The notes beneath the pieces were generated by a model that searched no databases, was not told where the DNA came from, and was given only the letters and a program-made list of their open reading frames with translations. Made by a program: the position numbers and the translations under genes. Shown one piece after another: positions 8,204-46,781 of a stretch of DNA of 64,000 bases. This DNA comes from an uncultured Bacteroidaceae bacterium (GTDB lineage Bacteria; Bacteroidota; Bacteroidia; Bacteroidales; SM23-62): NCBI GenBank assembly GCA_963752525.1, contig CAVVYS010000025.1, positions 4,868 through 68,867 of the forward strand, read 5' to 3'. Every line of letters begins with the position of its first letter. The stretch's first letter is position 1.

Positions 8204-9463
8204 ATGAGTAATTCTAGGGATAATTTCATAAAAACCATAAACCATCAGCAACCAGACCGGATTGTGGTGGATTTTGGAGGCACACCGACTTCAGGTATTC
8301 ATTGCCTGGCAGTTGAGAGACTGAGAGAGTATTACGGATTTGAGAAAAAACCGGTAAGGGTGATAGAACCCTTTCAAATGCTCGGTGAAGTGGATGCTGA
8401 CCTGGCTGAGGTTTTGGGCGTAGATGTTTACGGGGCCCTCGGTGAAGAAAACATGTTTGGCTTTTATAACCATGGCCCGTACAAGGAATTTAAAACCCAT
8501 TGGGGCCAGGTTGTCAGGGTACCTGAGAACTTCCATACCCAATTGGATGAAAATGGTGACCTGCTAATGTTCCCGAAGGGAGATATGACTGCCCCACCCT
8601 CTGCAAAGATGCCCCGTAGCGGTTATTTCTTTGATGCCATCATCCGCCAGGAACCCATTGATGAAGCCAGCCTTGATCCTGAGGATAACATGGAGGAGTT
8701 CAATGCAGTTACTGACAAAGACCTGGCATTCTGGGAAAAAGCTTCGAGGGAAGCAAGGAAAACGGGCAAGGCAGTGGCCGCTGCACTTGGAGGTACTGCG
8801 TTGGGAGATATTGCCCTGGTACCAGGCATGCAACTGAAAAATCCAAAAGGGATCAGGGACGTGGCGGAATGGTATATGAGCACCGTTATGCGTCCTGATT
8901 ATATAAAAACGATCTTTGAGAGGCAGATCGAATTGGCCATTCATAATTTCAGCCGGTATTATGAGGTGATCGGAGACAATATAGATGTGGTATTCATTTG
9001 CGGTACTGACTTTGGCACCCAGGATTCCACCTTTTGTTCCCCTGAACAGTTTGATGATATGTGGCTGCCCTATTACCGGAAAATCAATGACTGGATCCAT
9101 GAAAATACCCCATGGAAGAGTTTCAAGCATTCTTGCGGGGCAGTAAAATCTTTTATGCCAAAGTTCATTGAATCAGGCTTTGATATCATAAATCCGGTAC
9201 AGATCAATGCCACTGATATGGATCCTGCTGAACTTAAAAAGGAATTCGGTAGAGACCTGGTATTCTGGGGAGGGGGAATCGACACCCAGAAAACCCTGCC
9301 CTATGCCACACCAGATGAAATCAGGAAGGAAGTCCTGCGGCTCTGCGAAATCTTCGGCAAGGATGGAGGTTTTGTCTTTAATTCTGTCCACAATATTCAG
9401 GCTAATGTACCAGTGGAAAACATTGTAGCCGTAGTTGATGCGATAAAGGAATTTAACGGGTAA
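8204..9463 (+). CDS. uroporphyrinogen decarboxylase (URO-D) superfamily protein, MtaA/CmuA-like
   Basis: 419 aa with no signal peptide. The C-terminal half is typical of URO-D-like TIM barrels (FICGTDFGTQ, SFKHSCG, DIINPVQ, LVFWGGGIDTQ, GGFVFNSVHNIQ). Confidence 0.7.
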   Translation: MSNSRDNFIKTINHQQPDRIVVDFGGTPTSGIHCLAVERLREYYGFEKKPVRVIEPFQMLGEVDADLAEVLGVDVYGALGEENMFGFYNHGPYKEFKTHWGQVVRVPENFHTQLDENGDLLMFPKGDMTAPPSAKMPRSGYFFDAIIRQEPIDEASLDPEDNMEEFNAVTDKDLAFWEKASREARKTGKAVAAALGGTALGDIALVPGMQLKNPKGIRDVAEWYMSTVMRPDYIKTIFERQIELAIHNFSRYYEVIGDNIDVVFICGTDFGTQDSTFCSPEQFDDMWLPYYRKINDWIHENTPWKSFKHSCGAVKSFMPKFIESGFDIINPVQINATDMDPAELKKEFGRDLVFWGGGIDTQKTLPYATPDEIRKEVLRLCEIFGKDGGFVFNSVHNIQANVPVENIVAVVDAIKEFNG

Positions 9464-9526
9464 TTTTGCCTGCATACCGGTACCTGAAAAATCTGATCTG
9501 AATATTTTAGTATAACCATTTATATC

Positions 9527-10840
9527 ATGAAGCCTACATTTTTATTATCTGGTCTATCAATCCTATTCATTCTCTTTATTTTATGTTCACAATCTGTTAG
9601 CGGACAACAAAATAAATCTGTTAACCTCCGGGATTTTTATGATCCCGATTCTCCTACTGCCGGTCTTCAGGAAGCAGTGGACTATTTAAAACCGGATGGC
9701 GGAGAGATTTATGTACCTCCCGGAATCTACAAAATCAGAAGATCCATTGTTTTATATTCAGGAATATATGTTCGGGGATATGGCAATCATTCGATTATCG
9801 AACGCCTGGATTCCTGCATACAAATTCCACTTGTAAAGGATGGAAGAAAAGGAGATACAGAGATTAGACCAAAAGATATTTCAGGTTTTTTTATGGGAGG
9901 TGAAATAACTGTTTACAGTGACACATCATGGGGCTGGAATTGCAGCACTGCAGCCATTACAAACATTGAAGGCAAGAGTCTTATCATTGATACTCCCCTG
10001 AAACGTGATTTTTTACTGGAAGAAAATGGAATGATAATGAACTTCTTTCCTGTATTTACAGCAAGAAATGCTGAGAACATCAGGATAGAAAATATGGTGA
10101 TCGACGGGAAGATGAAACCCGGAAGTAATTATTATAATGAATTTGTAACTTCTGCCATCCATTTTCGAGATGTTTCAAATGTACATATTGAAAAAGTAAC
10201 CGTAAAAAATTATCCATCCGATGGTTTCAGCGTTCAGGGAGGGACTAATGCCTATGTAAGCAATTGTATAGCTGAATATAATCATGGCAATGGATTCCAT
10301 CCCGGAACAACGATAAATGAAAGTACCTGGATTAATAATGTAGGTCGCTATAATGGATGGGATGGTCTTTATTTCTGCTTTAATGTAAGGTATACCACCG
10401 TTTCAGGGAACCATTTTTACAAGAATGGGAAAAATGGAATAGGGGGACTTGGATGGGGAGGTGTTATGGGTGATCAAATGAATATTGTCGATGGAAATTA
10501 TTGTTATAAAAATGCAAAATCAGGAATAGAATGCACAACGGGCAAGAACAATATTATCGTCAACAATATCTGTGAGAATAATTCTCAGGAGGAAGCGGGG
10601 AAATGGCCGGGTATTTATTTGAATAACACCTCTTCCACCATAATTCGCGGCAATCGTTGCTGCAATTCACACCCGGAGGAATCCGGAAAAACACAAGCCT
10701 ACGGAATTCTTTTTTCCGGAGAATGTCTGCATAATGTGGTTACTGATAATATTCTCAGCGATCATTTGAAAAAAGGTATTGTTGGGGAAGATTTAGATAA
10801 TAATCTCATCGAAAACAATATAATTTTTAATAATAACTGA
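9527..10840 (+). CDS. exported right-handed parallel beta-helix protein (pectate-lyase-superfamily fold)
   Basis: It has a signal peptide. The N-terminal AGLQEAVDYLKPDGGEIYVPPGIYKI resembles Pectate_lyase_3-type starts. NxxxxN/G-rich coils repeat through the body (NGFHPG, NGWDGLYF, NGKNGIGG, KSGIECT, NNICENN). Confidence 0.65.
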   Translation: MKPTFLLSGLSILFILFILCSQSVSGQQNKSVNLRDFYDPDSPTAGLQEAVDYLKPDGGEIYVPPGIYKIRRSIVLYSGIYVRGYGNHSIIERLDSCIQIPLVKDGRKGDTEIRPKDISGFFMGGEITVYSDTSWGWNCSTAAITNIEGKSLIIDTPLKRDFLLEENGMIMNFFPVFTARNAENIRIENMVIDGKMKPGSNYYNEFVTSAIHFRDVSNVHIEKVTVKNYPSDGFSVQGGTNAYVSNCIAEYNHGNGFHPGTTINESTWINNVGRYNGWDGLYFCFNVRYTTVSGNHFYKNGKNGIGGLGWGGVMGDQMNIVDGNYCYKNAKSGIECTTGKNNIIVNNICENNSQEEAGKWPGIYLNNTSSTIIRGNRCCNSHPEESGKTQAYGILFSGECLHNVVTDNILSDHLKKGIVGEDLDNNLIENNIIFNNN

Positions 10841-10855
10841 ACCAAAATTAATAAT

Positions 10856-12151
10856 ATGAAGCGAAGAAACTTTATTGGAAAAACGGCTGCAGGAATGGCA
10901 GCACTGACTATTGTACCCCGGCATGTGCTCGGAGGTAAGGGTTTTATTGCCCCAAGTGACATGATAAACCTGGCGTACATCGGGCTGGGAAAACAATCCT
11001 ATCACCTTGTAAAGGAGATTACCAAATGCCCAGAAGCTGTAGCAGTGGCAGCGAGTGATGTTTTTGGTAAAAAGCTGGATCTCTTTCTGGATTTTGCCAA
11101 AGAACAAAACACAAAGAAAGGCATAGACAGTGAAATAAAGGCTTATCACTATTACCGTGAAATGCTGGAGCATCCGGATCTCGATGCAGTTGTGATAGCA
11201 ACACCAGACCACTGGCATGCTCAGATGGTTGTTGATGCTGCGAAAGCTGGTAAGGATATATACTGTGAAAAGCCTATGGCACTCACAGTAGCTGAGGGCC
11301 GGGCCATGGTAAATGCGACCCGCAAGTATGACAGGGTGTTTCAGACAGGAAACATGCAGCGCTCCTGGCGAGATTTCAGGCATGCTGTTGAACTGGTACG
11401 GAACGGTTATATTGGCGAGATAAATGAAATAAATGTCAGCGTTGGTGAGCCCGTACGCCAATGTGATCTTCCGACACAGGAAGTGCCAGCGTCGCTGGAC
11501 TGGGACGAATGGGTTGGCCCATCACTTTACAGGGGCTATCACGAGGACCTTGCCCCAAAAGTGGTAGATGGACCATGGGCCTGGTGGAGGGGCTACCGTG
11601 ATTTTGGGGGCGGACTCATCACAGACTGGGGTGCCCATATGTTTGATATTGCCCAGTGGGCACTTGAAATGGACGAGTCGGGTCCGGTTCAGTTCATTGC
11701 TCCGGAAGGATATGCCCAGAAAACCGGGGTGTCCATGATCTATGAAAATGGTGTAAGGGTTAACCATCAGCTATGGGGAGGAGAAGGCGATGGAAATGCC
11801 GTCCAGTTTATTGGTTCTGAAGGGAAAATCGAAGTCAGCCGGAACTTCCTGCGGACTTTCCCCGATGAAAAACTGGCCTCGGCTGACCTGAAAGAAAATG
11901 ATCAAAGAGTATATTTCAGCGACAATCATTACCAGGACTGGATAAATGCCATTAAGAAAAGAAACAAGCCAATCTCTGATGTGGAAACCGGTCATAGAAC
12001 CGCATCCGTCTGTAATCTGGTCAACATATGCTATGAACTGGAACGCCCCCTGCTCTGGGATCCTGAGAATGAAAAGTTCATAGGGGATGACTGGGCAGAT
12101 ATGATGTTGTCGCGTCCTTACCGGGGCAAATGGGATTTTACTGATTTCTAA
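10856..12151 (+). CDS. TAT-exported Gfo/Idh/MocA-family oxidoreductase (periplasmic glycoside/sugar dehydrogenase-like)
   Basis: Twin-arginine leader MKRRNFIGKTAAGMAALT. Rossmann region (LAYIGLGKQS), EKP motif (IYCEKPMA) and a 431-aa length are typical of exported GFO-type enzymes. Confidence 0.8.
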   Translation: MKRRNFIGKTAAGMAALTIVPRHVLGGKGFIAPSDMINLAYIGLGKQSYHLVKEITKCPEAVAVAASDVFGKKLDLFLDFAKEQNTKKGIDSEIKAYHYYREMLEHPDLDAVVIATPDHWHAQMVVDAAKAGKDIYCEKPMALTVAEGRAMVNATRKYDRVFQTGNMQRSWRDFRHAVELVRNGYIGEINEINVSVGEPVRQCDLPTQEVPASLDWDEWVGPSLYRGYHEDLAPKVVDGPWAWWRGYRDFGGGLITDWGAHMFDIAQWALEMDESGPVQFIAPEGYAQKTGVSMIYENGVRVNHQLWGGEGDGNAVQFIGSEGKIEVSRNFLRTFPDEKLASADLKENDQRVYFSDNHYQDWINAIKKRNKPISDVETGHRTASVCNLVNICYELERPLLWDPENEKFIGDDWADMMLSRPYRGKWDFTDF

Positions 12152-12177
12152 ACCGAAAAACCGATATTATAAAGTTT

Positions 12178-12927
12178 ATGAAATCCAAAAAAATCCTTAT
12201 CGTGGCAAGCCTTATTTTCCTGTTATTCTCATGCTCACAGAAAACTAAGCAAGAAACAGATCAGCTCACAGTGTCTCAGGAACCGATTATGAATTGCTTG
12301 AGCACCGAAGAAAAAAATGAGGGCTGGGAACTATTATTTGACGGTAAAACCACGATGGGCTGGAGGAAGTACAATGGCGAGGGTACCTCAGGCTGGGAGG
12401 TGTCGGATGCATGCCTTGTAGGATTGGGATTAGGAGGTGACAAAGGTGGAGACATTATTACGGTCAAACAGTTTGGGAATTTTATATTGACATGGGAATG
12501 GAAGCTTGGTCCGAACGGGAACAGCGGGGTCATGTACAATGCGCTGGAAGGGGAACAGTATAAGGTACCCTGGGAAACCGGACCGGAGTACCAGCTTATT
12601 GAAGACGAGGACTATGAAATTGTACTGGAGGACTGGCAAAAGACTGCTGCTGATTACGCTATGTATGCGGCATCTCCCGACAAGGTGCTGCACACACGTG
12701 ATTGGAATAAATCTATAATTATATATAATACTGAACATGTGGAGTACTGGCTGAATGGTAAAAGGGTTGTGCAATTCACCCCATGGAGTGAAGACTGGCA
12801 TCATCGGCGAACCACCGGAAAATTCAAGGATTATCCAGATTACGGCTCATCCAAAAAAGGACATATTGCCCTGCAGGATCATGGAAGCAAGGTATGGTTC
12901 CGGAATATAAAGATCAAGGAGTATTAG
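12178..12927 (+). CDS. DUF1080 (3-keto-disaccharide hydrolase family) lipoprotein
   Basis: Lipobox (LLFSCS). DUF1080-type motifs GWRKYNG...GWEV and a C-terminal GHIALQDHGSKVWFRNIKIKE. Confidence 0.8.
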   Translation: MKSKKILIVASLIFLLFSCSQKTKQETDQLTVSQEPIMNCLSTEEKNEGWELLFDGKTTMGWRKYNGEGTSGWEVSDACLVGLGLGGDKGGDIITVKQFGNFILTWEWKLGPNGNSGVMYNALEGEQYKVPWETGPEYQLIEDEDYEIVLEDWQKTAADYAMYAASPDKVLHTRDWNKSIIIYNTEHVEYWLNGKRVVQFTPWSEDWHHRRTTGKFKDYPDYGSSKKGHIALQDHGSKVWFRNIKIKEY

Positions 12928-12930
12928 CGT

Positions 12931-14529
12931 ATGAAAATAATAATACGAATCTTCCTGTTCACCATGGTATCGGCTGTTTATACCACGATATATTCACAGG
13001 GCAACAGCGAAATATTTAAAATAGAAACTTCTGTTCTCCCGGGTGAAAACTGGTGGGGAGGTAACATCGTAGATGGGCGAAAAATGCCTTTTGGCACAGC
13101 AGATTACCGGGTTGACCAGAACGGAAACCTTGGCACGAACCAGTCCCAGCCTCTCTTTGTGTCAGATAAGGGAAGGTTCATCTGGAGCGAGGAACCACTC
13201 GAAATCAGCTTCAGTGATGGTAACATAATTGTGGAGTCTTCTGCTGCAATTGTACTTAACGAGGATGGGGAAAATCTTCGAGATGCATATATCAAAGCAA
13301 GTAAAACATACTTCCCTGCTTCGGGTAAAATACCACATCCACTATTTTTTTCCAGGCCCCAATACAATACATGGATAGAGTTGCAGTACAACCAGAACGA
13401 GGAGGACATACTTAAATACGCTGCATCTATTGTTGGCAATGGTTTTCCCACCGGAATTATCATGATCGATGACAACTGGCAGAAGAACTACGGAGAATGG
13501 GATTTTTCATGTGAACGATTTAATGATCCCAGGGGTATGATAGACCTGCTTCATACAATGGGCTTCAAGGTCATGGTATGGGTATGTCCCTTTGTAGGGT
13601 CAGACACACCTACCTACAGGCAGCTTGCCAGAAGCAATAAGCTGATGTTCGCTACCCCAGAAAAAGTACAGCCGGCCATCGTAAAATGGTGGAATGGACA
13701 AAGCGCCATTATTGATCTCAGCAATCCTGAAGGGATGGATTGGTATAAAGCTCAGCTTCAGTATCTTATTGACGAATACGAGGTGGATGGTTTCAAACTG
13801 GATGCAGGGGATGCATTTTTCTATGAGGGTATTTTCGGACTGAAGGATATCAGCCAGAATGCTCATGCAGAGCTACACACGAGTATTGGACTCGAATTTG
13901 AATTCAATGAATACCGTGCCAGCTGGAAAATGGGAGGACAGCCACTTGTACAGCGGCTCAGGGACAAGGGGCATGATTGGGACGATCTTAATGCCCTGAT
14001 CCCCGATATGATCGCTCTTGGATTGATCGGTCATCCTTTCAGCTGTCCTGATATGATTGGTGGCGGAGAGGTTGGTTCCTTCTGGGAAAACCCGGATCTG
14101 GATGAAGAATTAATCGTTAGAGGCACGCAAGTCTCAGCACTTATGCCGATGATGCAATTCTCGGTTGCTCCATGGAGAATACTGGGTCCGGAGAACCTGG
14201 TGATCTGCCGGAATATGGCACAGCTTCATTACAAAATGGGAGATGAGATCCTTGCCTTGGCAAAGGAATCAGCCATTTCCGGAGAACCCATTATCCGATC
14301 CCTGGAATATGTTTACCCGGGACAGGGCTATGCCTCTATCAGTGACCAGTTCTTCCTTGGAGATGATATCCTGGTTACACCAGTAACTGCCAAAGGACTG
14401 CGAGAGAGAGTTGTTATTTTTCCAAAAGGAAAATGGAAAGGTGACGACGGAAGCATTGTCAAAGGTCCGGCAATAAAAACTATTCAGGTCCCCCTCGATA
14501 GACTTCCCTGGTACAGAAAGGTAAATTAA
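12931..14529 (+). CDS. glycoside hydrolase family 31-like alpha-glycosidase
   Basis: 532 aa with a signal peptide. IIMIDDNWQ and EVDGFKLDAGD resemble the GH31 nucleophile region (YicI VDCFKTDFGE). The subfamily is not assignable by eye. Confidence 0.55.
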   Translation: MKIIIRIFLFTMVSAVYTTIYSQGNSEIFKIETSVLPGENWWGGNIVDGRKMPFGTADYRVDQNGNLGTNQSQPLFVSDKGRFIWSEEPLEISFSDGNIIVESSAAIVLNEDGENLRDAYIKASKTYFPASGKIPHPLFFSRPQYNTWIELQYNQNEEDILKYAASIVGNGFPTGIIMIDDNWQKNYGEWDFSCERFNDPRGMIDLLHTMGFKVMVWVCPFVGSDTPTYRQLARSNKLMFATPEKVQPAIVKWWNGQSAIIDLSNPEGMDWYKAQLQYLIDEYEVDGFKLDAGDAFFYEGIFGLKDISQNAHAELHTSIGLEFEFNEYRASWKMGGQPLVQRLRDKGHDWDDLNALIPDMIALGLIGHPFSCPDMIGGGEVGSFWENPDLDEELIVRGTQVSALMPMMQFSVAPWRILGPENLVICRNMAQLHYKMGDEILALAKESAISGEPIIRSLEYVYPGQGYASISDQFFLGDDILVTPVTAKGLRERVVIFPKGKWKGDDGSIVKGPAIKTIQVPLDRLPWYRKVN

Positions 14530-14531
14530 AT

Positions 14532-16190: not shown

Positions 16191-17210
16191 TTATTGATAA
16201 TTCTTCTCATACCAGGCCTTTGCCTCTCCGGCCAGTTCAACAGCCTTAATCAGCCTTTCCCTGTTTTTCTCTTCAGTGCTGAACCAGGGTGACTGTATAA
16301 ATCCCAGCAATCTTTCGTCTTCAATATTTTCTGCGCAGAACTTTACATTTTCCATAATGTTCTCTTCTGTTCCATCATAGTAGTTACTGCCCCCTGGAAC
16401 CTGCTCATAACCAAGTGACTCCAGGGTTTGGTAGCCCTTCACTTCGATATTTGTATCAGGATTAAAATCAAGCCCGTTATACCAGTTGCTTTGAAGTACT
16501 GATTTGGGCATCATCCTGGCAAATATTTCAGGCCTATGTCTGACAAAATCCTGCCATACCCATGGCCGGGCCCCGTTTTTCATCACCTCCCCTATCAGGA
16601 AGTAAATATCACCCCAGTACAGATCATGTTGCCTTACTATGATCTGTTCATGCTCCCGCTGATTGCGTGCATTCTCCTCGTCCATCCCAAGATGAAACAG
16701 GCGTGGTTTCCCATAGATATCCATCACCTCGGCAATCAATTCTCTGCATACATCATAGTATCTATCCGTTGATACCATACGGGAATATTTTCCCAGCCAT
16801 GCATCATGGCAGGTAGAAAAATTCAGTTTGGGGATTGGTTCAAGCCCCATACCCCGGATCTTTTCCAGCTCTTTATGTAACCTTTCGGTAGACCAGGCAT
16901 TCCGGACAGCAATTTCCGGGTGGCTTTTATACACTATCGCATCCCCAAGATCCATTACCACCATGTTCATACCCACATCAACCATTTTCTCAAGGATATC
17001 GTTCCAAACCGAATCATCGAAGGGAAGGACCGGAGATTTTTCTTTCCACATATTCATGCTGATATGCAGCAGACAAGCCCATATCTTTTCAGTGTTCCCA
17101 TCTTGCTTTTTCATTGGCGGTAGATGCTGTTTTGACACAAGGCTGCCAGGTATCATACCCAGGAGCCCGGCTGCCGAAATCTGTCTTAAAAAATAACGTC
17201 GATTGCTCAT
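16191..17210 (-). CDS. TAT-exported TIM-barrel-like hydrolase candidate (GH20-like HxGxDE signature)
   Basis: Twin-arginine leader MSNRRYFLRQISAAGLLG. FHLGMDEE resembles the GH20 H-x-G-G-D-E acid/base motif. Length is 339 aa and the family is uncertain. Confidence 0.4.
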   Translation of the reverse strand: MSNRRYFLRQISAAGLLGMIPGSLVSKQHLPPMKKQDGNTEKIWACLLHISMNMWKEKSPVLPFDDSVWNDILEKMVDVGMNMVVMDLGDAIVYKSHPEIAVRNAWSTERLHKELEKIRGMGLEPIPKLNFSTCHDAWLGKYSRMVSTDRYYDVCRELIAEVMDIYGKPRLFHLGMDEENARNQREHEQIIVRQHDLYWGDIYFLIGEVMKNGARPWVWQDFVRHRPEIFARMMPKSVLQSNWYNGLDFNPDTNIEVKGYQTLESLGYEQVPGGSNYYDGTEENIMENVKFCAENIEDERLLGFIQSPWFSTEEKNRERLIKAVELAGEAKAWYEKNYQ

Positions 17211-21187: not shown

Positions 21188-21217
21188 GACAATTATTTAT
21201 TTTTTGGTTAACATATC

Positions 21218-21970: not shown

Positions 21971-21979
21971 TTTGTTCTC

Positions 21980-23026: not shown

Positions 23027-23037
23027 ATGCTATAAAA

Positions 23038-37346: not shown

Positions 37347-37353
37347 TTGTTCC

Positions 37354-39000: not shown

Positions 39001-39026
39001 TTTGTATCTGGGTAATAATAATTTCC

Positions 39027-40660: not shown

Positions 40661-42103
40661 TTATTTTTTTTCTGTTTCTGCCACAGCAAAAAACTCACCC
40701 CGATTTACCAGCTTATAGATCCGCTCACCGGGATAATCGGAGAATAGGATCTGCATGGATGCTTCCCTGTAGTTTTTAACATACCAACTTCCCATGATAT
40801 ATACATTTCCTTTATCATCGGCTGCAAGTGAATTGATCATGCGCGGTTTTCTCCCATCCTGGTCTACAATGGCACCGTGATCAATGATGGTATTGTTCCC
40901 ATCAGACTTGATGGAAACACTCCTGATGTGCAGGTTATCATTGAATCCCAATGCTGCAGGATCCTTTTCCCTGTTTGCTTCAGCACTCTGAACCCGCTGG
41001 TCATCAACAGATGCATACTGAACAAAGTAAACCCTATCGCCACCGAGGGCAGTCTCAAGAAAGGTGGAACCAATGGATGCTATGGGTTGAAATGCTTTGC
41101 CTGTTTTAATGTCCTTCGACGGATCAAAAATCCATAGGCGCTCATCACCTCCACCCCAATTCCCCATAGTAAAGAGGCATTTTTCTCTACCTGGAAGGGC
41201 CTGTGCCCATGTCCATGCACGGCTGCCTAACAATTTCTTGTCGGTAACAGGAGTCCCGTCAATCATTACGCCTCTCGGGAGTACATCTTCATATGTTTCA
41301 ATTTTCCCGGTTTTGAAGCGGTAGCAATAGAGATTGCCTTGATCATGCTCATAATGTTGATGTAATTTCCACAGGTTGAACCAGCAATTGCCTTCATCAT
41401 CCACATAAAACCAGAAACATGCTCCGGTTTGTCCCTTGGTTATCTGCCCAAGTTCCTTTTTGTCACCAGATTTTATGTCAATGCTGTACAGATAACAACC
41501 CCCGGTTTTGATCAGTTCATCATGAAAGGGAGCAACAAATACATAAAGAATTTTGCGTTCCGGATCCACATTTATAGCAGAATATATAGAATACCGTGGC
41601 CTGACTATGCCAAAGTCGCGAAAATTGCCCGTGGCGAGTTCATATCCGATCACATGAGCACCTGTGTAGACATCTATCCCCTCTGGCCAGTAATTGGACA
41701 GATGTGTGGTAAAATACAGCCAGCCATCACATTCGACAATGGGACTGTGGATCTTGCCTTGCTGTGTTTCGGTATCCCCTTCCCCGCATACCAGGGTCAT
41801 ATCTTCCGCCAGCACGGTATGTTTTTTAGTTTCCGGATTATACCTATGAAACCCTGCTCCATGTCCCCTGGAATGGGTAGATGTACCAAAATAGCAGTTT
41901 CCATCAGAGGCCACGGTTATGCCCTCCCATTGCCCATCCCACTCTTTACATATCTTGTTCATGGAGAAGGACCTAACATCGCATATTTTCCCTTCATGTT
42001 CGGTTGAACCATGTTTCTGAGCTTTTATTCCTGCTGTGAAGGAATATAATAATACTGTAGAAATCAGTAAAATGCCTGCTGTCCGATTCATAAAAAATTT
42101 CAT
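40661..42103 (-). CDS. exported hypothetical protein, beta-rich/propeller-like
   Basis: 480 aa with a signal peptide. Aromatic strand-like segments recur (CDGWLYFTTH, ILYVFVAPF, CYLYSIDI, NCWFNLW, RVYFVQY, NVYIMGSWY). No family recognised. Confidence 0.6.
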   Translation of the reverse strand: MKFFMNRTAGILLISTVLLYSFTAGIKAQKHGSTEHEGKICDVRSFSMNKICKEWDGQWEGITVASDGNCYFGTSTHSRGHGAGFHRYNPETKKHTVLAEDMTLVCGEGDTETQQGKIHSPIVECDGWLYFTTHLSNYWPEGIDVYTGAHVIGYELATGNFRDFGIVRPRYSIYSAINVDPERKILYVFVAPFHDELIKTGGCYLYSIDIKSGDKKELGQITKGQTGACFWFYVDDEGNCWFNLWKLHQHYEHDQGNLYCYRFKTGKIETYEDVLPRGVMIDGTPVTDKKLLGSRAWTWAQALPGREKCLFTMGNWGGGDERLWIFDPSKDIKTGKAFQPIASIGSTFLETALGGDRVYFVQYASVDDQRVQSAEANREKDPAALGFNDNLHIRSVSIKSDGNNTIIDHGAIVDQDGRKPRMINSLAADDKGNVYIMGSWYVKNYREASMQILFSDYPGERIYKLVNRGEFFAVAETEKK

Positions 42104-42181: not shown

Positions 42182-43591
42182 TCAGTTATTTTTCATTTCA
42201 TTGAGAATCTCCAAAACCCTTTCGACCAGGATCTCCCCTGCACCGGGTGCACACCTGGCACTGATTGGCTCATAGTTACCTTCCACGAAAGCTTTTCTGT
42301 CAGGGATATAATCAACCGAACCATTGGTCAGCTCAAGGACCATGGTATTGGTATAAGGTGATCGTTCTTTGATATAAAGGCCAAGTTCCACGAAGACTTC
42401 ACCTGGTAAGCTAACCATGGCGAAATCCCCACCCAATGTAAAAACCTGGACTTCAGCATCAATGGGCTTTCCTTTCCTTTCGGAGACATCAACAATTTTA
42501 AAGGCATTTACCATCTCCATAAAAGGGGCAGCATTCCTTTCCCCAAATTTATGTGTTATCTCCCGGGCACTTTCCACCTCATCCGCAGAAAATTGTGCCA
42601 GCGGAAGCTTGACAATTTCACTCCTGGCCTGGATCTTATCAACTTCAATAGGCTCAAGCCTGGTATAGGTTTTTATCACTTCTCCGGCAAGCACCATCCC
42701 GATGCGTTCGGCTTCAGCATGCCCTTTCTGGGGCTCTCCTGATTTCACATTTATATGGTTGATATTCCCGCAGCACCCCTGTCCGAACAGGGTGACCATG
42801 TCCTCTCCCTTCAATCCGCCAAGGATCTTTGACAAGGTATATGGCATATCGGCCGATATTTCAAGTCCGCCGGTAATATCCAGGTGCAATGCAAAATTCA
42901 CATAGGTGGATAATGGTTTACCTTTTGAAGATTCAGCATAAAGCACACCTACCTCCGGGTCAATGGGTCCTGCTGGTTTTATAATCATGGGATTCAATTT
43001 TCCTGGGTTCCAGCCAACAGTGCCATCTGTCATGAAAAACCGCCGGTTAAAACTGATGGTTTCTTCCTGCCCTTTACCAAATGAAAGGTGGGCAGGCCTT
43101 ATCCTATCATTTGCCATAACAATGCTTTCCACAATTTTGCCTGGCAGCTCCTTCATATAGTCTCTCAAAAGGTCACCCATGCTACCTTCTGTGGCATACA
43201 TATTGGTTGAGGAAAGTATAACAGGGCCTGTGTGGGAATGGGTGGCGCTGATCATGATATGATCAGCAGGTATCCCGGTGGACTTCTCTGCAAGCTGCCT
43301 GGTTTCAGCTGCCAGTTCAGCAGTTATTTCTATAATGTCACAGGAAATGATAGCCAGCTTTTCACCATTTTTTTCAATTACAAGGGTTTTGGCGTACAGG
43401 TCGTCATGGACACCCTCAGCACCCCGTTCATAATAATACCCGGCAATCGGTGTACCCATGAGTGGTGTGATCCTGACCGATGCAGTGCCAATGTTCATTA
43501 CAGCTGCCAATGCCAGGTTTGATGAGAAAGCAAACAGGATTAAACACCCTGCCTTAATTAATAAACTAAATTTGATTGATTTGAATTCCAT
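42182..43591 (-). CDS. neutral/alkaline ceramidase-like amidohydrolase (copy 2)
   Basis: The start is placed at MEFKSIKF followed by a hydrophobic leader. GVHDDLYAKTLV and ISATHSHTGP parallel copy 1 (GIHDSLYARAFV, LATHTHSGP). Confidence 0.55.
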   Translation of the reverse strand: MEFKSIKFSLLIKAGCLILFAFSSNLALAAVMNIGTASVRITPLMGTPIAGYYYERGAEGVHDDLYAKTLVIEKNGEKLAIISCDIIEITAELAAETRQLAEKSTGIPADHIMISATHSHTGPVILSSTNMYATEGSMGDLLRDYMKELPGKIVESIVMANDRIRPAHLSFGKGQEETISFNRRFFMTDGTVGWNPGKLNPMIIKPAGPIDPEVGVLYAESSKGKPLSTYVNFALHLDITGGLEISADMPYTLSKILGGLKGEDMVTLFGQGCCGNINHINVKSGEPQKGHAEAERIGMVLAGEVIKTYTRLEPIEVDKIQARSEIVKLPLAQFSADEVESAREITHKFGERNAAPFMEMVNAFKIVDVSERKGKPIDAEVQVFTLGGDFAMVSLPGEVFVELGLYIKERSPYTNTMVLELTNGSVDYIPDRKAFVEGNYEPISARCAPGAGEILVERVLEILNEMKNN

Positions 43592-43735
43592 GTTTCTGAT
43601 GCTTATGTGAAATAGTGATAATCTTACCAACTGGATATGCCTCTCCTGTGAACGTCATACAAAAAGATCAATCCGTGGATGAATGATTGTATTAAGATAT
43701 TTAAAAACTTCACAACTACAAGGGTTCCGCTTAAT

Positions 43736-45124
43736 CTATTTTGAAATTTTGAACAGTCCCGCTCCATGCATTTTTATGGGTGCAGAAAACTCCCCAGTGT
43801 AGGTTCCCAAATCTTTCCTTGCCCAGAGATCCCTTACCTTATACTCGGCATCAGCATCCAATCCTATATCTCTCATTGCCACTTTTATGTCAACTGGTGT
43901 TTTAGTTTCCCACTGGTTAAAGAAGGCCAGGTACTTATCCTCCGAATCAGAGATATCAGCAGCCCAGATAATGATGGCATTCTTGAATTTGATCTGCCTG
44001 GGGTTTAAGCATTCTCGGTTTACAGCCAGGGCTTCTTCATTGGTCAGGATTTCCAGGGTAAGCTCATCCGTCTCAGGAAGGTAGCCTCCTATCATCAGGG
44101 GCTGGCGTGCAATATACCAGAGGGTCATGAGGGTATGCAGCTCTTCCTTATTGAACCTGGATATCCTTTCATCCGGTCCCTTATAGGTGATTTTTTTTCC
44201 CAATTTCCCCACCGGAAGCATGTCCAGATCGGGCCAGAATCCTGGTTCAGCTTGTTCCACAACCCTTGCAGCAGGTTGAAAGCCTACTTTAACCATCTGC
44301 CATACATCCCAGAAATCGGCAGATATCCTTGCCATATGGCAATTTGCCTTTAGCACTTCCATGGGAAAATCATGAGGTACCAAACTCAGGACCATATCCC
44401 TTCCACTGCTTCTCAAAGCCTTGCTAATGGCTTCCAACTCAGGCTGGTTAGTTACATCATCACATTTTACAAAATCCACTCCCCATTCCGCAAACAGTTC
44501 ATAGACTGAATTATAGTATTCCTGGGATCCTGGTTTTGTCATATCCACTCCATATATCCCGTCATACCAGAGACAGCCCTTATCGGGCTGGGCGATGGTT
44601 GCGGCACCTATGTCGGTCCCCTTGATCCTCATATTCTGATCATAGGCCTGCCAGGGAATACCCCTCATCAGGTGCAACCCGAATTTGAGTCCCAGTCCAT
44701 GGATATAATCAGCCAGGGGCTTAAAACCCTTTCCTTCCATAGAGGAAGGGAATTTCACCGGGTCAGGTAAGAGCCTCCCGAAATCATCAACCGTATAATG
44801 GGGTTTATGTGGCATGGTTTCATGGGTAAAGGCTTCATAATCCGAGGCGATGGAATCTCCATACCACATCATGTCGATGACAATGTATTCGTACCCGAGA
44901 TGTTTGAGGTTTTTTGCCATATATTCTGCGGCGGCCCGCACTTCCGATTCATTGGCCCCGAAACCAAGACAATCCCAGGAATTCCATCCCATGGGTGGCT
45001 TGAGGGCAAGTGCCTTTTTAATGGGAGGCGTATCATCATCCGTACTGGTTACCGGATTTGTCCCCTGGTCAGCACAGGCAGCGATAAGGATTGCCAGGGA
45101 CAAATGGATAAGTTTGGATTTCAT
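43736..45124 (-). CDS. GH27-family alpha-galactosidase/alpha-N-acetylgalactosaminidase-like lipoprotein
   Basis: Lipobox (LIAAC). The PPMGWNSWDCLG signature and VDFVKCDD are typical GH27 motifs. 462 aa. Confidence 0.75.
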   Translation of the reverse strand: MKSKLIHLSLAILIAACADQGTNPVTSTDDDTPPIKKALALKPPMGWNSWDCLGFGANESEVRAAAEYMAKNLKHLGYEYIVIDMMWYGDSIASDYEAFTHETMPHKPHYTVDDFGRLLPDPVKFPSSMEGKGFKPLADYIHGLGLKFGLHLMRGIPWQAYDQNMRIKGTDIGAATIAQPDKGCLWYDGIYGVDMTKPGSQEYYNSVYELFAEWGVDFVKCDDVTNQPELEAISKALRSSGRDMVLSLVPHDFPMEVLKANCHMARISADFWDVWQMVKVGFQPAARVVEQAEPGFWPDLDMLPVGKLGKKITYKGPDERISRFNKEELHTLMTLWYIARQPLMIGGYLPETDELTLEILTNEEALAVNRECLNPRQIKFKNAIIIWAADISDSEDKYLAFFNQWETKTPVDIKVAMRDIGLDADAEYKVRDLWARKDLGTYTGEFSAPIKMHGAGLFKISK

Positions 45125-45298
45125 TGACTAAAATGTTTGTTGTTTTTTTTTATTCATTCAGCATTTCCGGGGTTCCATCCCACACTGCCATTTTTCATAG
45201 ATTAAAAATACCTTGATGAGTATTAAATACCTAATACTTATCCTCATATAGATGATATCTATCTATTATTATATCGGCGATGTCACAGAAAATTTAAA

Positions 45299-45306
45299 TA
45301 TTTTTG
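45299..45306 (+). promoter_or_regulatory. Bacteroidota -7 promoter box (TAnnTTTG) upstream of the GH28 gene
   Basis: TATTTTTG matches the TAnnTTTG consensus. It ends 17 nt before the ATG at 45324, inside the divergent intergenic region 45125-45323. Confidence 0.4.
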
Positions 45307-45323
45307 TTTTCAAAGCTTGAACC

Positions 45324-46781
45324 ATGTACAAAACACTCATTTCCCTAACCGTACTTTTCATTAATTTCCTGCACGTCTCGGCAGGATCTGCAAACATCCT
45401 TGACCATGGTGCTAAGGGAGATGGTGAGTTTCTGAATACCACATCCATACAGTCTGCCATAGACCAATGCTTTGAGCAGGGTGGCGGGACTGTCTATGTA
45501 CCGCCCGGAAAATTTTTAAGCGGTACCGTCATCCTGAAAAGCCATGTGAATATATACCTGGAAACGGGGGCGGTCCTGCTAGGAAGCCCTAAGATCAAAG
45601 ACTATCCTGAGATCTACCCGGAATTCCGGTCCTATACGGATGTCAATTATGTTGATAAAAGCCTTATCTATGCTGAAAAAGCGGAGAACATCAGTATTTG
45701 CGGCAGAGGTACCATTGACGGCCAGGGTGAAGAAGATGAGTTTGATCTCCCCGGAAGGGAAAATTATAAAAAAAGGCCCTACCTGATCAGGATGGTTGAA
45801 TGCAAGGATATTCATATCTCAGACATCAATATCATAAATTCGGCCATGTGGGTACAGCATTACCTGGCCTGTGATGATCTGGTAATTGAGGGTATCAGTG
45901 TAAACAGCCTGGTAAACCATAATAATGACGGAATTGATATAGATTGCTGCAAAAGGGTCAGAATCAGCAACTGCGATATTAACAGCGGTGATGACGCCAT
46001 TGTTCTGAAGGCAACTGCCCCACGGGATTGTGAACAGATTTGTATAATCAACTGCATACTGCGGAGCCAGTGCAATGCCATCAAACTGGGAACAGAATCA
46101 GTGGGGGGATTCAAAGATATACTGGTCAGCAATTGCGCGATTTACGACACCCGTCTCTCAGCCATCGCCATTGAAATGGTGGACGGGGGAACGGCCGAAA
46201 GGATACAGGTAAACAACATTTCAGCGAAGGGCGTGAGGGGAGGCATCTTTATCCGACTTGGCAACAGGGCGCGCCACCACCTGGCCCAGGGATCCGGGGG
46301 TGGCACACAGTATTTTTTTGAGGAAAATGAGAAGCTTGAAAAACCTGGTATGGGTATTTTGAGGAACATCTCCATCAGTAATTTCATGTGTACCGGTGTG
46401 GACGAAACCGCTTGCTCCATTACCGGTATTCCGGGTTTTTATATTGAGAACATCACACTCAGGGATATCTATATCAGCTATGATAACAGGGGTGATCCTG
46501 GCACCTTCAAAGCAGAGGTTCCGGAAAATGAATCTGAATACCCGGAATACAGCATGTTCGGAAAATTGCCTGCCTACGGTATCTATTCAAGGCATGTAAA
46601 GAACCTCTCCTTTAACAATGTCAGGCTTACCTATGAAAAGGACGAAGTCCGGCCCGCCCTGATCTTTGATGACGTAACAGGACTTCTCCTCTCTGACATG
46701 GACCTGATGCAACCTTTCGGGACAGGTCCAGCGGTCATATTTAAGAATACAGTTGACATCAGAAGTGACCGTGAATATTGA
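45324..46781 (+). CDS. GH28-family polygalacturonase-like glycoside hydrolase
   Basis: Signal peptide. NNDGIDID, SGDDAIVLK and CNAIKLGTES match the GH28 NTDG / G(Q)DD / RIK motif series. 485 aa. Confidence 0.85.
   Translation: MYKTLISLTVLFINFLHVSAGSANILDHGAKGDGEFLNTTSIQSAIDQCFEQGGGTVYVPPGKFLSGTVILKSHVNIYLETGAVLLGSPKIKDYPEIYPEFRSYTDVNYVDKSLIYAEKAENISICGRGTIDGQGEEDEFDLPGRENYKKRPYLIRMVECKDIHISDINIINSAMWVQHYLACDDLVIEGISVNSLVNHNNDGIDIDCCKRVRISNCDINSGDDAIVLKATAPRDCEQICIINCILRSQCNAIKLGTESVGGFKDILVSNCAIYDTRLSAIAIEMVDGGTAERIQVNNISAKGVRGGIFIRLGNRARHHLAQGSGGGTQYFFEENEKLEKPGMGILRNISISNFMCTGVDETACSITGIPGFYIENITLRDIYISYDNRGDPGTFKAEVPENESEYPEYSMFGKLPAYGIYSRHVKNLSFNNVRLTYEKDEVRPALIFDDVTGLLLSDMDLMQPFGTGPAVIFKNTVDIRSDREY

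Follow-up and report, generated by a model that had tools for sequence, protein, structure and literature searches.

The segment between positions 8204 and 46781 of the window (the whole 64-kb stretch of DNA analysed) is a genuine CAZyme gene cluster of an uncultured sediment Bacteroidales genome, PUL-like in character and free of SusC and SusD within the window. This island, 94.8% of which is coding, comprises 29 tightly spaced genes in about six transcription units; it is a mosaic, the modules of which stay associated in related genomes though they are reshuffled. Families were assigned by Pfam and NCBIfam profile searches of the window ORFs, and export signals were called by eye and with a heuristic. 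The results bear out an earlier note on this DNA, which had described a carbohydrate-degrading, mostly exported island: export signals are present in 20 of the 29 ORFs (11 Sec, 6 lipoprotein, 3 Tat), the other 9 encoding cytoplasmic proteins, so that its statement that most ORFs carry such signals is fair.

All ORFs claimed in that note were found at their coordinates, four of them with overlong starts (35700-37544, 25610-26935, 26993-28237 and 42182-43630), and one gene, encoding a cupin of 123 aa (31122-31493), had been missed. The left edge, drawn at 8204, should lie further upstream, as the KduI and DctPQM genes (3632-7358) adjoin island genes in the related locus L168. The claimed family recurrences are all real: five propellers and two each of URO-D-like, ceramidase-N-like and Gfo/Idh/MocA proteins. 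The two enzymes listed as GH88/105 belong to the Glyco_hydro_88 family, both being of GH105 type. The idea that the island was assembled from duplicated gene sets did not hold up. There are no colinear duplicated blocks and the only clear paralogues are the five propellers; within the URO-D, GH105, ceramidase-like and Gfo/Idh/MocA pairs, identity is just 25-32%.

Enzymes and accessory proteins of the island

The left part lies on the plus strand. It begins with a cytoplasmic KduI/IolB-family isomerase (3632..4516; Pfam KduI 3e-63), contiguous with island genes in L168, which would act on 4-deoxy-5-keto-uronate-type products. The following TRAP transporter DctP-DctQ-DctM (4531..7358; Pfam DctP, DctQ, DctM) is likely the inner-membrane importer of the island; in L168 the beta-helix gene starts 73 bp after DctM. 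URO-D/MtaA-like protein 1 (8204..9463; Pfam URO-D 2e-17, NCBIfam MtaA/CmuA), cytoplasmic, with an HxC motif at residue 309 and Cys381, was not found at the equivalent position in L168. The exported right-handed beta-helix protein (9527..10840; Pfam Beta_helix, NosD, Pect-lyase_RHGA_epim), with an 82% orthologue in L168, has an unclassified glycoside hydrolase or lyase fold. It is followed by a Tat-exported Gfo/Idh/MocA oxidoreductase of the glycoside 3-dehydrogenase type (10856..12151; Pfam; Tat motif RRNF), a DUF1080 lipoprotein or 3-keto-glycoside lyase/hydratase (12178..12927; Pfam 3keto-disac_hyd 5e-46) and an exported GH31 alpha-glycosidase (12931..14529; Pfam Glyco_hydro_31 domains), to which NCBIfam alpha-xylosidase and alpha-glucosidase models match below cut-off.

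On the minus strand, a cytoplasmic amino-sugar module (20255..24312; Pfam, NCBIfam) with gaps of 9-30 bp encodes a DegT aminotransferase, a Gfo/Idh/MocA oxidoreductase, a PIG-L de-N-acetylase and a NagB-like protein. One GH105-type unsaturated uronyl hydrolase is a lipoprotein (24510..25583, minus strand; Pfam Glyco_hydro_88 2e-56) and the other has a Sec signal (28317..29552, plus strand; 3e-81). For both, the top-scoring PDB chain is 3k11, an unnamed 'putative glycosyl hydrolase', and the best characterised match is YteR; GH105 structures are also among the top PDB matches. Four further genes are located on the plus strand. URO-D/MtaA-like protein 2 (26993..28237; Pfam URO-D 6e-25, NCBIfam MtaA/CmuA, PDB 4ay7) is cytoplasmic, carries an HNC motif and probably starts at 27065. 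Ceramidase-N-like amidase 1 (29699..31120; Pfam Ceramidase_alk 5e-16, covering the N-terminal half only; PDB neutral ceramidases) is a lipoprotein. The small cytoplasmic cupin protein (31122..31493; Pfam Cupin_2) has orthologues of 74-81% in L089 and L168, and the cytoplasmic Amidohydro_2 metal hydrolase (31675..32772; Pfam 1e-20) belongs to a family that also flanks unk441 in L171 and L172.

The right part comprises, on the minus strand, a DUF4838 lipoprotein (32777..34726; Pfam DUF4838 4e-26; 86% orthologue in L088), a GH20-like hexosaminidase of GH163/GH185 type, and an exported FGE-sulfatase-like protein (34745..35689; Pfam 3e-52). The window encodes no sulfatase as a partner for it, the CxPxR motif occurring in none of its proteins. 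The FGE-like gene is next to propellers in L002 and L088; in L168 a cupin gene intervenes. Beyond the propeller array lie ceramidase-N-like amidase 2 (42182..43630, minus strand; Pfam Ceramidase_alk 1e-11), with a Sec signal, a probable start at 43588 and orthologues of 82-83% in L089 and L090, and a GH27 (Melibiase_2) lipoprotein (43736..45124, minus strand; Pfam), whose gene heads an eight-gene minus-strand unit. The GH28 gene (45324..46781, plus strand; Pfam GH28; NCBIfam RhamgalacuronBT4146 6e-92, below cut-off) is divergent from the propeller operon.

Three families of the island are absent from Pfam. unk339 (16191..17210, minus strand), a Tat-exported TIM barrel without a Pfam match of its own, keeps the GH20 H-x-G-x-D-E motif as FHLGMDEE, and 18 of the 48 members of its family match Glyco_hydro_20 weakly. 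To judge from this motif it is a minimal GH20-like enzyme, in line with the earlier pairing of a GH20-like with a DUF4838-like protein; an 82% orthologue sits between two propellers in L090. The Tat-exported unk441 (25610..26935, minus strand; 709 homologues) has its true start probably at 26911 or 26887; in L089 and L090 its neighbours are GH28 or GH105 as well as propellers. unk480 (40661..42103, minus strand), an exported beta-propeller with 441 homologues (mean column identity 64%), is a conserved partner of the CRTAC1-like propellers in close relatives, adjoining them in L002, L004, L007, L088-L090 and L098. The best fold match of its AF2 model (pLDDT 85.5) is the PL22 oligogalacturonate lyase 3pe7, a weak match (TM 0.46/0.56, rmsd 8.6 A) among generic propellers, and kinship with PL22 is not supported at the sequence level.

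CRTAC1-like propellers

The five propellers, all FG-GAP/ASPIC proteins, are encoded on the minus strand. Propeller 1 (14532..16175; Sec; Pfam FG-GAP_3 1e-35) has six Dx[DN]x[DN]G calcium-blade motifs and an 88% orthologue in L168, and propeller 2 (17248..18870; Sec; FG-GAP_3 1e-36) is separated from it by unk339. This propeller-unk339-propeller unit is headed, with a gap of 15 bp, by the gene of an AraC-family regulator with a cupin sensor domain (18886..19776, minus strand; Pfam HTH_18, AraC_binding). This AraC regulator, described as the only one, and the upstream TRAP system, which is accompanied by KduI, were both confirmed by Pfam/NCBIfam. The other three propellers form a tandem (35700..40649; Pfam FG-GAP_3 and UnbV_ASPIC) with Sec (35700-37346), lipoprotein (37354-39000) and Sec (39027-40649) signals. 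Mutual identity is 41-63% among the five and 58-63% among the tandem copies, compared with 82-90% for orthologues in relatives. The duplications are therefore old and predate the divergence of the closest relatives.

The AF2 model of a tandem-array propeller (pLDDT 90.6) is closest to CRTAC1 (9etn, TM 0.72), which is non-enzymatic. GlcNAc-binding FG-GAP lectins (PVL, AAL2) and integrins follow; the fold relatives also include a metal-dependent aldos-2-ulose dehydratase and, at rank 34 with a TM of about 0.35, the PL11 lyase YesW. The blades of PL11 are homologous 'calcium blades' (PMC3123361). Seven residues (R78, H80, H132, Q192, D194, H255 and W408) are kept by all or nearly all members of the island-type clade (9-11 of 11 sequences) but are not conserved in distant CRTAC1-like proteins, whereas the calcium-binding loops are conserved throughout. 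Blade periodicity suggests that these residues may lie at one face.

It might be thought that the propellers and unk480 are non-catalytic binding or scaffold proteins presenting oligosaccharides to the hydrolases, with the lyases that feed GH105 being conventional PLs encoded elsewhere. The lectin folds agree with this, as does the CRTAC1-like gene found downstream of SusC-SusD in L004 and L045, at the usual slot of a surface glycan-binding protein (one gene further on in L004). Binding proteins also typically diversify in multiple copies, and PL26 adjoins propellers in relatives. We nevertheless regard this explanation as unlikely: all propellers but one carry Sec rather than lipoprotein signals and hence are not surface-tethered, the clade-specific His, Arg, Gln and Asp resemble a catalytic or metal site more than a shallow lectin site, and the only neighbours of GH105 in L098 are propellers, unk480, the Tat oxidoreductase and GH31.

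Gene order in related genomes

Of 12 gene neighbourhoods around orthologous propellers, 11 show the unusual families of the island recurring together, namely propellers, unk480, GH28, ceramidase-like, unk441, unk339, GH105, GH27, GH31, DUF4838, FGE-like, URO-D-like, beta-helix and the Tat oxidoreductase/DUF1080 pair. Such co-conservation was the neighbourhood check proposed in the earlier note. In L168, the genes of KduI and DctPQM lie directly next to those of the beta-helix protein, the Tat oxidoreductase, DUF1080, GH27 and propellers. Three parts that lie apart in the window are united in a single 12-kb block of L090, in the order ceramidase-like, unk480, propeller, GH28, unk441, propeller, unk339, propeller. 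The 16.4-kb contig L098 contains only three unk480, four propellers, GH105, the Tat oxidoreductase and GH31. The P0012 contig and L003 each have four propellers with URO-D and add PL26; the former also carries DUF4838, beta-helix, ceramidase-like and GH27 genes, the latter Gfo/Idh/MocA and GH31.

The gene order differs in every relative, and in L168 the FGE-like gene comes after propellers 1 and 2 and the cupin gene, the central 16 kb of the window (18.9-34.7 kb) being missing between the same flanking genes. Because of this missing segment, a mosaic of associating modules is a better description than the one coherent system that had been proposed. Independent carbohydrate operons for different substrates could also have gathered at a hot spot, their coherence being mere adjacency, and the DegT, Gfo/Idh/MocA, PIG-L and NagB-like unit could be biosynthetic instead. 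The differing gene order and the segment missing in L168 would fit, as would a single regulator for about six units and the occurrence without propellers of the unk441/Amidohydro_2/CBM9-like trio and of unk480 in other genomes. We consider this distinctly improbable, given the recurrence around orthologous propellers despite reshuffling, the merging of pieces of three units in L090 and the chemical complementarity of GH28, GH105, KduI and TRAP.

Absence of SusC and SusD

As the earlier note had stated, SusC, SusD, hybrid two-component sensors and ECF/anti-sigma regulators are absent among the window ORFs of at least 150 aa that are not nested in longer ones. L002, the closest long relative, has SusC/SusD about 5 kb from its propeller operon, and L004, a Sediminicola metagenome-assembled genome, shows the direct order SusC-SusD-unk480-propeller. 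The absence is therefore a trait of the arrangement in the present genome and not of the gene set. These two loci might also point to a canonical PUL with SusC/SusD, and possibly also lyases or sulfatases, encoded in that part of the 80,310-bp source contig, roughly 16 kb, which extends beyond the window. This is very unlikely, however, as the borders of the window consist of genes not involved in glycan degradation: M23 peptidase, AnmK and Fe-ADH in the left 3.4 kb, and peptidases, AsmA, GntP, HAD, M28, Crp and NlpC/P60 in the right 17 kb. The syntenic L169 runs upstream of the window's first genes into housekeeping genes (epimerase, RNase Y, ZapA and an M23 peptidase matching window ORF 1), and L090 has the same right-hand border of C69 peptidase and AsmA.

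Possible function of the island

The substrate suggested earlier, containing uronates and amino sugars, agrees with the BT4146-like GH28, the two GH105, KduI/TRAP, GH20-like, DUF4838, PIG-L, NagB-like and DegT proteins. From gene content and synteny we infer the following working. Oligosaccharides of an acidic, rhamnogalacturonan-like glycan with N-acetylhexosamine and alpha-linked neutral sugars would enter the periplasm by way of an outer-membrane system whose genes lie elsewhere. Enzymes that are soluble in the periplasm or anchored as lipoproteins (GH28, both GH105, GH27, GH31, the minimal GH20-like enzyme, DUF4838 and the beta-helix protein) would break them down, in part by the 3-keto-glycoside route of the Tat oxidoreductase and DUF1080. 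N-acyl or amide substituents would be removed by the two ceramidase-N-like amidases and possibly unk441. Uronate-derived monomers would be imported by the TRAP transporter and isomerised by KduI, the cytoplasmic module would handle the amino sugars, and the AraC regulator may govern at least the first propeller unit.

To our knowledge, GH105 acts only on lyase-made 4,5-unsaturated uronates, and no recognised lyase is encoded in the window. The CRTAC1-like propellers and/or the PL22-fold-like unk480 are therefore proposed, tentatively and at less than even odds, as putative lyases acting by beta-elimination. Counted for this idea were the GH105 type of both Glyco_hydro_88 proteins, a GH28 near BT4146, the gene set of L098, the Sec signals of four propellers, the seven clade-specific residues, the YesW and dehydratase folds and the unk480-PL22 match; counted against it were non-enzymatic CRTAC1 as nearest structure, the rank of YesW, the weakness of the PL22 match and PL26 beside propellers in two relatives, which means that the lyase could be conventional and encoded elsewhere in the present genome. 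The island model including these candidate lyases is our best explanation, to which we give an even chance as a whole. Three further points were counted against it. Some modules are also found separately, propellers being absent beside unk441 in Cyclobacterium and beside unk480 in Phocaeicola and 75 of 80 metagenome loci; the module of DegT, Gfo/Idh/MocA and PIG-L may be biosynthetic; and about 16 kb of the source contig extend beyond the window.

Comparison with known systems

The view that the recurring core parts have no assigned role in glycan breakdown is partly outdated, since DUF4838 provides catalysis in two families, as the catalytic domain of both GH163 endo-beta-GlcNAcase and GH185 6-sulfo-GlcNAcase (PMC10570127), and unk339 is a minimal GH20-like enzyme. 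By its sequences, the Tat oxidoreductase/DUF1080 pair is the already described 3-keto-glycoside pathway, which combines a Tat-exported Gfo/Idh/MocA oxidoreductase with DUF1080 (PMC8121099; bioRxiv 10.1101/2024.03.25.586180); the oxidoreductase matches the AL3/BT-type enzyme (10.1101/2024.03.25.586180). The GH28 protein is closest to the rhamnogalacturonidase BT4146, an enzyme of rhamnogalacturonan-I.

Organisation of the island

The island at 8204-46781 comprised 29 genes in about six transcription units and was 94.8% coding, with intergenic gaps of 1-30 bp in most units. According to Pfam and NCBIfam, the first unit (8204-14529, forward strand) encodes a URO-D/MtaA-like protein, an exported beta-helix protein, a Gfo/Idh/MocA oxidoreductase with a twin-arginine (Tat) signal, a DUF1080 lipoprotein and a GH31 protein. 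Two units on the reverse strand come next: 19776-14532, with an AraC regulator and two CRTAC1-like propellers on either side of unk339 (339 aa, Tat signal), and 26935-20255, with unk441 (441 aa, Tat signal) and GH105, DegT, Gfo/Idh/MocA, PIG-L and NagB-like proteins. A second URO-D-like protein, another GH105, a ceramidase-N-like lipoprotein, a small cupin and an Amidohydro_2 protein are encoded on the forward strand at 26993-32772. The longest unit (45124-32777, reverse strand) contains GH27, a second ceramidase-N-like protein, unk480 (480 aa), three tandem propellers, an FGE-sulfatase-like protein and a DUF4838 lipoprotein, and divergent from it lies the gene for a GH28 (45324-46781, forward strand). 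Judged from the N-termini by eye and by a hydrophobicity, lipobox and RR heuristic, 20 products are predicted to be exported (11 Sec, 6 lipoprotein, 3 Tat) and 9 to be cytoplasmic.

Left of the island Pfam identified an M23 peptidase fragment, AnmK, Fe-ADH, KduI/IolB and the TRAP transporter DctPQM. Of this M23 peptidase, the window's first ORF covers the C-terminal 364 aa. To the right follow a C69 peptidase, an S15-type peptidase with a T9SS sorting domain, AsmA-like proteins, a GntP permease, HAD, M28, Crp and NlpC/P60 proteins. The ORF of the S15/PepX-like peptidase (49343-51259), which ends in the T9SS sorting domain, has no N-terminal signal peptide when read from its TTG start, and this start is probably mis-set. 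Within the window, this domain is the chief sign that the organism belongs to Bacteroidota. Two AsmA/DUF748-like membrane proteins (51229-54198 and 56220-57221) flank a 346-aa protein without a Pfam family. The G+C content was 36% at 62001-64000 and 42-48% across the island. No Rfam match and no tRNA was found when the window was scanned.

The earlier note had remarked that SusC/SusD, hybrid two-component and ECF/anti-sigma genes were missing, and the Pfam search bore this out. Among ORFs of at least 150 aa lying outside any longer ORF, neither a TonB-dependent receptor (Plug, TonB_dep_Rec) nor SusD, and neither a hybrid two-component sensor nor an ECF/anti-sigma gene, was found in the 64-kb window. 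With regard to the hallmarks of a canonical polysaccharide utilisation locus (PUL), a linked regulator is present, namely the AraC protein with its cupin sensor domain (18886-19776), and an adjacent SusC/SusD pair is absent from the 64-kb window. A CAZyme gene cluster in the dbCAN definition combines one or more CAZymes with a transporter and/or a transcription factor in one neighbourhood. GH28, GH27, GH31, the two GH105 and the DUF4838 protein form such a cluster with DctPQM and the AraC regulator.

Families do recur within the island, as the earlier note had stated, and all of these recurrences are real. Its further claim that the island was assembled from duplicated gene sets finds no support: there were no colinear duplicated blocks, and the URO-D-like, GH105, ceramidase-like and Gfo/Idh/MocA pairs were each only 25-32% identical. 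The five propellers shared 41-63% identity with one another (58-63% within the tandem three). Since orthologues of single propellers in relatives are 82-90% identical, against 41-63% among the paralogues, the paralogues are old. Close relatives have between 1 and 3 copies in the tandem array.

The CRTAC1-like propellers

All five propellers (ORFs 14532, 17248, 35700, 37354 and 39027 on the reverse strand) matched FG-GAP_3 of Pfam with E values of 1e-35 to 1e-41, and each paralogue carried five or six strict Dx[DN]x[DN]G motifs. For UnbV_ASPIC the Pfam cut-off was exceeded in 37354 (23.9 bits) and 39027 (24.8 bits) and missed in 35700 (19.8 bits); Pfam did not report the domain in 14532 or 17248. 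The AF2 model of propeller 39027-40649 (pLDDT 90.6) includes a C-terminal beta-sandwich. Its best fold match in the PDB was murine CRTAC1 (9etn, TM 0.72), followed by FG-GAP GlcNAc lectins, aldos-2-ulose dehydratase (TMq 0.5) and integrins; the PL11 lyase YesW ranked 34th with a TM of about 0.35. At the sequence level CRTAC1 was the sole relative in the PDB. No Pfam or PDB sequence match related to PL11 was obtained for the propellers, nor any PL22 chain in the PDB search.

When 11 island-type sequences were aligned with 23 distant ones, the calcium-binding loops were kept in all of them. R78, H80, H132, Q192, D194, G238, H255 and W408 were invariant or nearly so in the island type (9-11 of 11) and not conserved in the distant sequences, where H47 and H312, partly conserved within the island-type clade, were not conserved either. 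H132, Q192, H255 and H312 occupy the equivalent spot directly after the calcium-loop strand of successive blades. By analogy with integrin-type propellers they would lie on one face near the propeller axis.

CRTAC1-like proteins, annotated as 'ASPIC/UnbV' or 'enediyne biosynthesis protein E4', number thousands in Bacteroidota, Planctomycetota, Acidobacteriota and Gemmatimonadota. We found no function for them in the literature searched, and nothing relevant that ties CRTAC1, ASPIC, UnbV, FG-GAP or URO-D to polysaccharide utilisation. CRTAC1 itself is not known to have enzymatic activity.

Neighbourhoods in relatives

Homologues of the propeller numbered more than 4,700 at E <=1e-20, with several copies on many contigs. 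The neighbourhoods compared here are those of orthologues with at least 42% identity. In L168 (82-95% identity), KduI and DctPQM are followed by the beta-helix protein, the Tat oxidoreductase, DUF1080, GH27, propellers 1 and 2, a cupin and an FGE-like protein. L002, whose propeller is 89% identical, encodes SusC, SusD, PKD/GH5, GH28, unk480, three propellers, an FGE-like protein and GH27, with GH105 farther on. In L004, from a Sediminicola MAG, SusC and SusD are accompanied by an unk480 homologue, a propeller, CBM9, an M19 peptidase and another propeller, and farther on by CE15. Four propellers occur on the JGI contig of protein P0012, together with GH27, PL26, a ceramidase-like protein, DUF362 with a T9SS domain, URO-D, CN_hydrolase, DUF4838 and a beta-helix protein; L003 likewise has four, next to URO-D, an alpha/beta-hydrolase, Gfo/Idh/MocA and PL26, with Gfo/Idh/MocA and GH31 farther on. 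L005 contains GH31, CE15, GH31, a propeller and GH27, then at a distance GH28, and L088 unk480, two propellers, an FGE-like protein and DUF4838.

L089 encodes a C69 peptidase, a ceramidase-like protein, unk480, a propeller, GH28, GH105, a cupin and unk441. L090 combines AsmA, a C69 peptidase, a ceramidase-like protein, unk480, a propeller, GH28, unk441, a propeller, unk339 and a further propeller, so that pieces of three window units are fused into one block. The trio of two AsmA/DUF748-like proteins and the 346-aa protein is also kept there, directly beside the island border. The whole content of L098, a metagenome contig of 16.4 kb (1-16361), is two unk480 genes, the Tat oxidoreductase, GH105, two propellers, unk480, two propellers and GH31. 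In L007 (Sphingobacteriaceae) only a propeller and an unk480 homologue are found amid housekeeping genes.

The earlier note had named co-occurrence in other genomes as a check, and the unusual families of the island are indeed co-conserved, in 11 of 12 contexts, though gene order is fluid. One CRTAC1-like clade is thereby set firmly inside carbohydrate-degrading operons. Near distant CRTAC1-like genes (24-38% identity) of Acidobacteriota, Planctomycetota and Gemmatimonadota, none of the island's families was present among the matches listed. A scan of a genome collection with the propeller alignment returned, among the matches listed, mostly such distant genes of other phyla and illustrates the breadth of the superfamily. 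In some Bacteroidota a CRTAC1-like gene forms a minimal locus with genes for ECF sigma, anti-sigma, SusC and SusD. One such locus, in Aestuariivivens insulae (L045, 2988-13141), encodes a CRTAC1-like protein of 1108 aa and no CAZyme in the gene run; a weak, sub-threshold GH43 match lies 5 kb downstream. It is a minimal PUL-like unit with the propeller protein as its sole cargo gene.

Because L168 has KduI and DctPQM in front of the island genes, the TRAP transporter and KduI belong to the system. The beta-helix gene of L168 begins 73 bp after DctM. What the window has in this place (7359-9463), a non-coding gap of 845 bp and the URO-D-like gene 8204, is missing there and looks like an insertion into an otherwise contiguous TRAP-to-island junction. 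Neither this gap (7359-8203) nor that at 19777-20254 showed blastn similarity to the relatives' loci compared.

A SusC/SusD pair just beyond the window edges is unlikely, because in relative L169 the genes upstream of the M23 peptidase are those for ZapA, RNase Y and an epimerase, and because on the right the island is bordered by C69 peptidase and AsmA in the window and in L090 alike. Since other genomes do carry the pair beside these families, its absence here is a trait of this particular arrangement. The same enzyme set thus occurs with SusC/SusD in some relatives and beside TRAP and KduI in the window and a close relative, which bears on the way in which PUL-prediction tools overlook glycan-degrading capacity.

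Families without known function

For unk480 (40661-42103, reverse strand) 441 homologues were found, with a mean column identity of 64% in an alignment of 28 sequences and no Pfam family. It was modelled by AF2 as a beta-propeller (pLDDT 85.5). The top fold match was the PL22 oligogalacturonate lyase (3pe7; E 1e-9, TM 0.46/0.56), a weak match amid generic propellers, and the unk480 profile found nothing among PDB sequences, with no PL22 chain at E values up to 10. We considered unk480 as an obligate partner of the propellers and rejected this, as a propeller match accompanied unk480 in no more than 5 of 80 metagenome loci (one of these matches just 29% identical) and the Phocaeicola copies lack a propeller. 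The family thus occurs also in genomes named Phocaeicola, a host-associated genus. In such MAGs (L086/L087, 7279-11458) an unk480 homologue of 61% identity follows an 892-aa protein without Pfam match and has no CRTAC1-like neighbour.

unk441 (25610-26935, reverse strand; 709 homologues) carries a Tat signal and has no Pfam family. In our own reading of the sequence, its DD and HGxGHE motifs are reminiscent of CE4-type metal deacetylases. Homologues without propellers lie between Amidohydro_2 and CBM9-like genes in Cyclobacterium qasimii and another genome (L171, 8858-12064; L172, 9025-12044). Pareuzebyella sediminis is a further carrier of the family.

unk339 (16191-17210, reverse strand) is the ORF called GH20-like in the earlier note. 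The protein has no Pfam match of its own, and its PDB match to GH20 is marginal (E 0.05). The GH20 motif H-x-G-x-D-E is kept as FHLGMDEE, and Glyco_hydro_20 is weakly matched by 18 of 48 family members (best E 8e-6). Across the family, which has 866 cluster representatives at E <=0.001, E179 never varies, and conservation reaches 90% or more at H173, G175 and E178. In an hhalign comparison the family profile showed no relation to the DUF4838 protein of the window.

The DUF4838 protein (32777-34726) matches the full PF16126 profile with 92.3 bits (cut-off 26.6) and has a lipoprotein signal; no F5/F8 domain was detected in it. GH163 (BT1035, endo-beta-GlcNAcase) and GH185 (Sp_0475, 6-sulfo-GlcNAcase), both distant relatives of GH20, have DUF4838 as their catalytic domain (PMC10570127). 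The view that the recurring core families have no assigned role therefore fails for DUF4838 and stands for the propellers, the ceramidase-N-like and the URO-D-like proteins.

Both URO-D-like proteins contain an MtaA-like HxC motif, the downstream cysteine being present only in 8204. They score far below the cut-offs of the NCBIfam MtaA/CmuA models, and no corrinoid (B12-binding) partner protein was found in the window. The exported FGE-sulfatase-like protein (34745-35689) is encoded beside or near propellers in L002, L088 and L168. The idea that it matures a sulfatase-type enzyme encoded nearby was rejected, there being no sulfatase and no CxPxR/CxAxR motif in any window protein. The NagB-like protein of the 20255-21970 region, which adjoins the PIG-L de-N-acetylase, has no Pfam match. 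It matches NCBIfam nagB with E 2e-6 and, weakly, PRK02122, a 653-position 'glucosamine-6-phosphate deaminase-like' model.

A well-supported genomic association singles out the CRTAC1-like clade, unk480, unk441, unk339 and the ceramidase-N-like proteins as candidate glycan-active families. For none of these did the literature searched offer a link to glycan use.

Proposed mechanism and the lyase question

The genes present, their export signals, their operons and the synteny are matters of observation, and for the remainder we infer a mechanism as follows. The island's enzymes, periplasmic or anchored as surface lipoproteins, would complete the breakdown of oligosaccharides from an acidic glycan that resembles rhamnogalacturonan, carries N-acetylhexosamine and alpha-linked neutral sugars and may bear N-acyl or amide substituents. 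The TRAP transporter would import the uronate products for KduI, and amino sugars would go to the cytoplasmic unit of PIG-L, NagB-like, Gfo/Idh/MocA and DegT proteins.

The GH28 (45324-46781) is closest to the NCBIfam model of the BT4146 rhamnogalacturonidase, with 309 bits against an equivalog cut-off of 500 bits. Both proteins of the Glyco_hydro_88 family (ORFs 24510 and 28317; Pfam 192 and 274 bits) had 3k11, YteR and GH105 entries as their best PDB matches, ahead of GH88, and are accordingly predicted GH105 enzymes of the YteR type. GH105 enzymes hydrate a 4,5-double bond that is known to be made by lyases only. No recognised lyase was found in the window despite two GH105 and KduI.

Because of this gap, and because L098 has GH105 with so few neighbours, we put forward tentatively that the island-clade propellers and/or unk480 might be beta-elimination enzymes, a proposal we regard as possible and by no means the likelier outcome. 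Of what the window encodes, the island-clade propellers are the strongest candidates to supply the lyase step that GH105 requires and the recognised genes lack, and no locus argues more clearly than L098 for a lyase as yet unrecognised among the propellers. The elimination would be metal-assisted, on the model of PL11, PL22 and aldos-2-ulose dehydratase, and the clade would constitute a new family of glycan beta-eliminases (poly- or oligosaccharide lyases or keto-sugar eliminases) feeding GH105 in marine and sediment Bacteroidota. The main rival explanation is that the propellers and unk480 are lectin-like binders and that lyases are encoded elsewhere in the genome; PL26 adjoins the propellers in two relatives (the P0012 contig and L003), in keeping with this. 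If the propellers only bind, the island is an ordinary CAZyme cluster, though richly unannotated. If they are lyases, this would be the first catalytic activity in the CRTAC1/ASPIC-UnbV superfamily, and the island would hold two or three more unclassified CAZyme families (unk441, unk339 and the ceramidase-N-like amidases). Were lyase activity confirmed, CAZy would gain new families relevant to carbon turnover in the sea and in sediments, and the fold of human CRTAC1 would have its first clue to function.

Comparison with known systems

The propellers share with CRTAC1 (9etn) the calcium-blade FG-GAP propeller and its Dx[DN]xDG loops, and in the model of 39027 also the beta-sandwich that follows at the C-terminus, which in CRTAC1 is of the ASPIC/UnbV type. 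They differ from it in that identity is about 20% and the island clade has its own set of R78, H80, H132, Q192, D194, H255 and W408 and sits in CAZyme operons. PL11 (YesW, 2z8r) and PL22 (Ogl, 3pe7) have propeller folds as well and cleave (rhamno)galacturonan by metal-assisted beta-elimination. The blades of PL11 are homologous calcium blades (PMC3123361). YesW is among the fold matches of the CRTAC1-like model and PL22 is the top match of unk480, both at low TM scores. The protein at 32777-34726 resembles GH163 and GH185 in its full-length DUF4838 and the surface protein BT1035 in its lipoprotein signal.

A periplasmic 3-keto-glycoside route has been described in B. thetaiotaomicron and Alistipes (BT2156-BT2160 and AL1-AL5; PMC8121099; bioRxiv 10.1101/2024.03.25.586180). 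The Tat Gfo/Idh/MocA oxidoreductase and the lipoprotein DUF1080 at 10856-12927 (forward strand) have the signal types of AL3 and AL2, and by sequence this pair is predicted to be such a route. In contrast to the described pathway, the window has neither a second periplasmic oxidoreductase nor an AL1-type sugar-phosphate-isomerase-like lyase (no AP_endonuc_2-type protein, as expected of the xylose-isomerase-like AL1/BT2156, was among the window ORFs), and the pair belongs to a longer CAZyme operon that also encodes the beta-helix protein and GH31.

For rhamnogalacturonan-I, Luis et al. reportedly described in 2018 the utilisation locus BT4145-BT4183 of Bacteroides thetaiotaomicron. The island resembles it in the GH28 closest to BT4146 (compared here through the NCBIfam model), the YteR-type GH105s, GH27 and KduI-type uronate handling, and relatives' versions of the island (the P0012 contig and L003) also in PL26. 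Unlike that locus, the window lacks SusC/SusD, a hybrid two-component sensor, PL9, PL11 and PL26, and the island has in addition CRTAC1-like propellers, unk480, unk441, GH20-like, DUF4838, ceramidase-like and URO-D-like proteins and a TRAP importer. CAZyme clusters lacking SusC/SusD are already known, and so are several components of this island; its value lies in an association that points to uncharacterised families.
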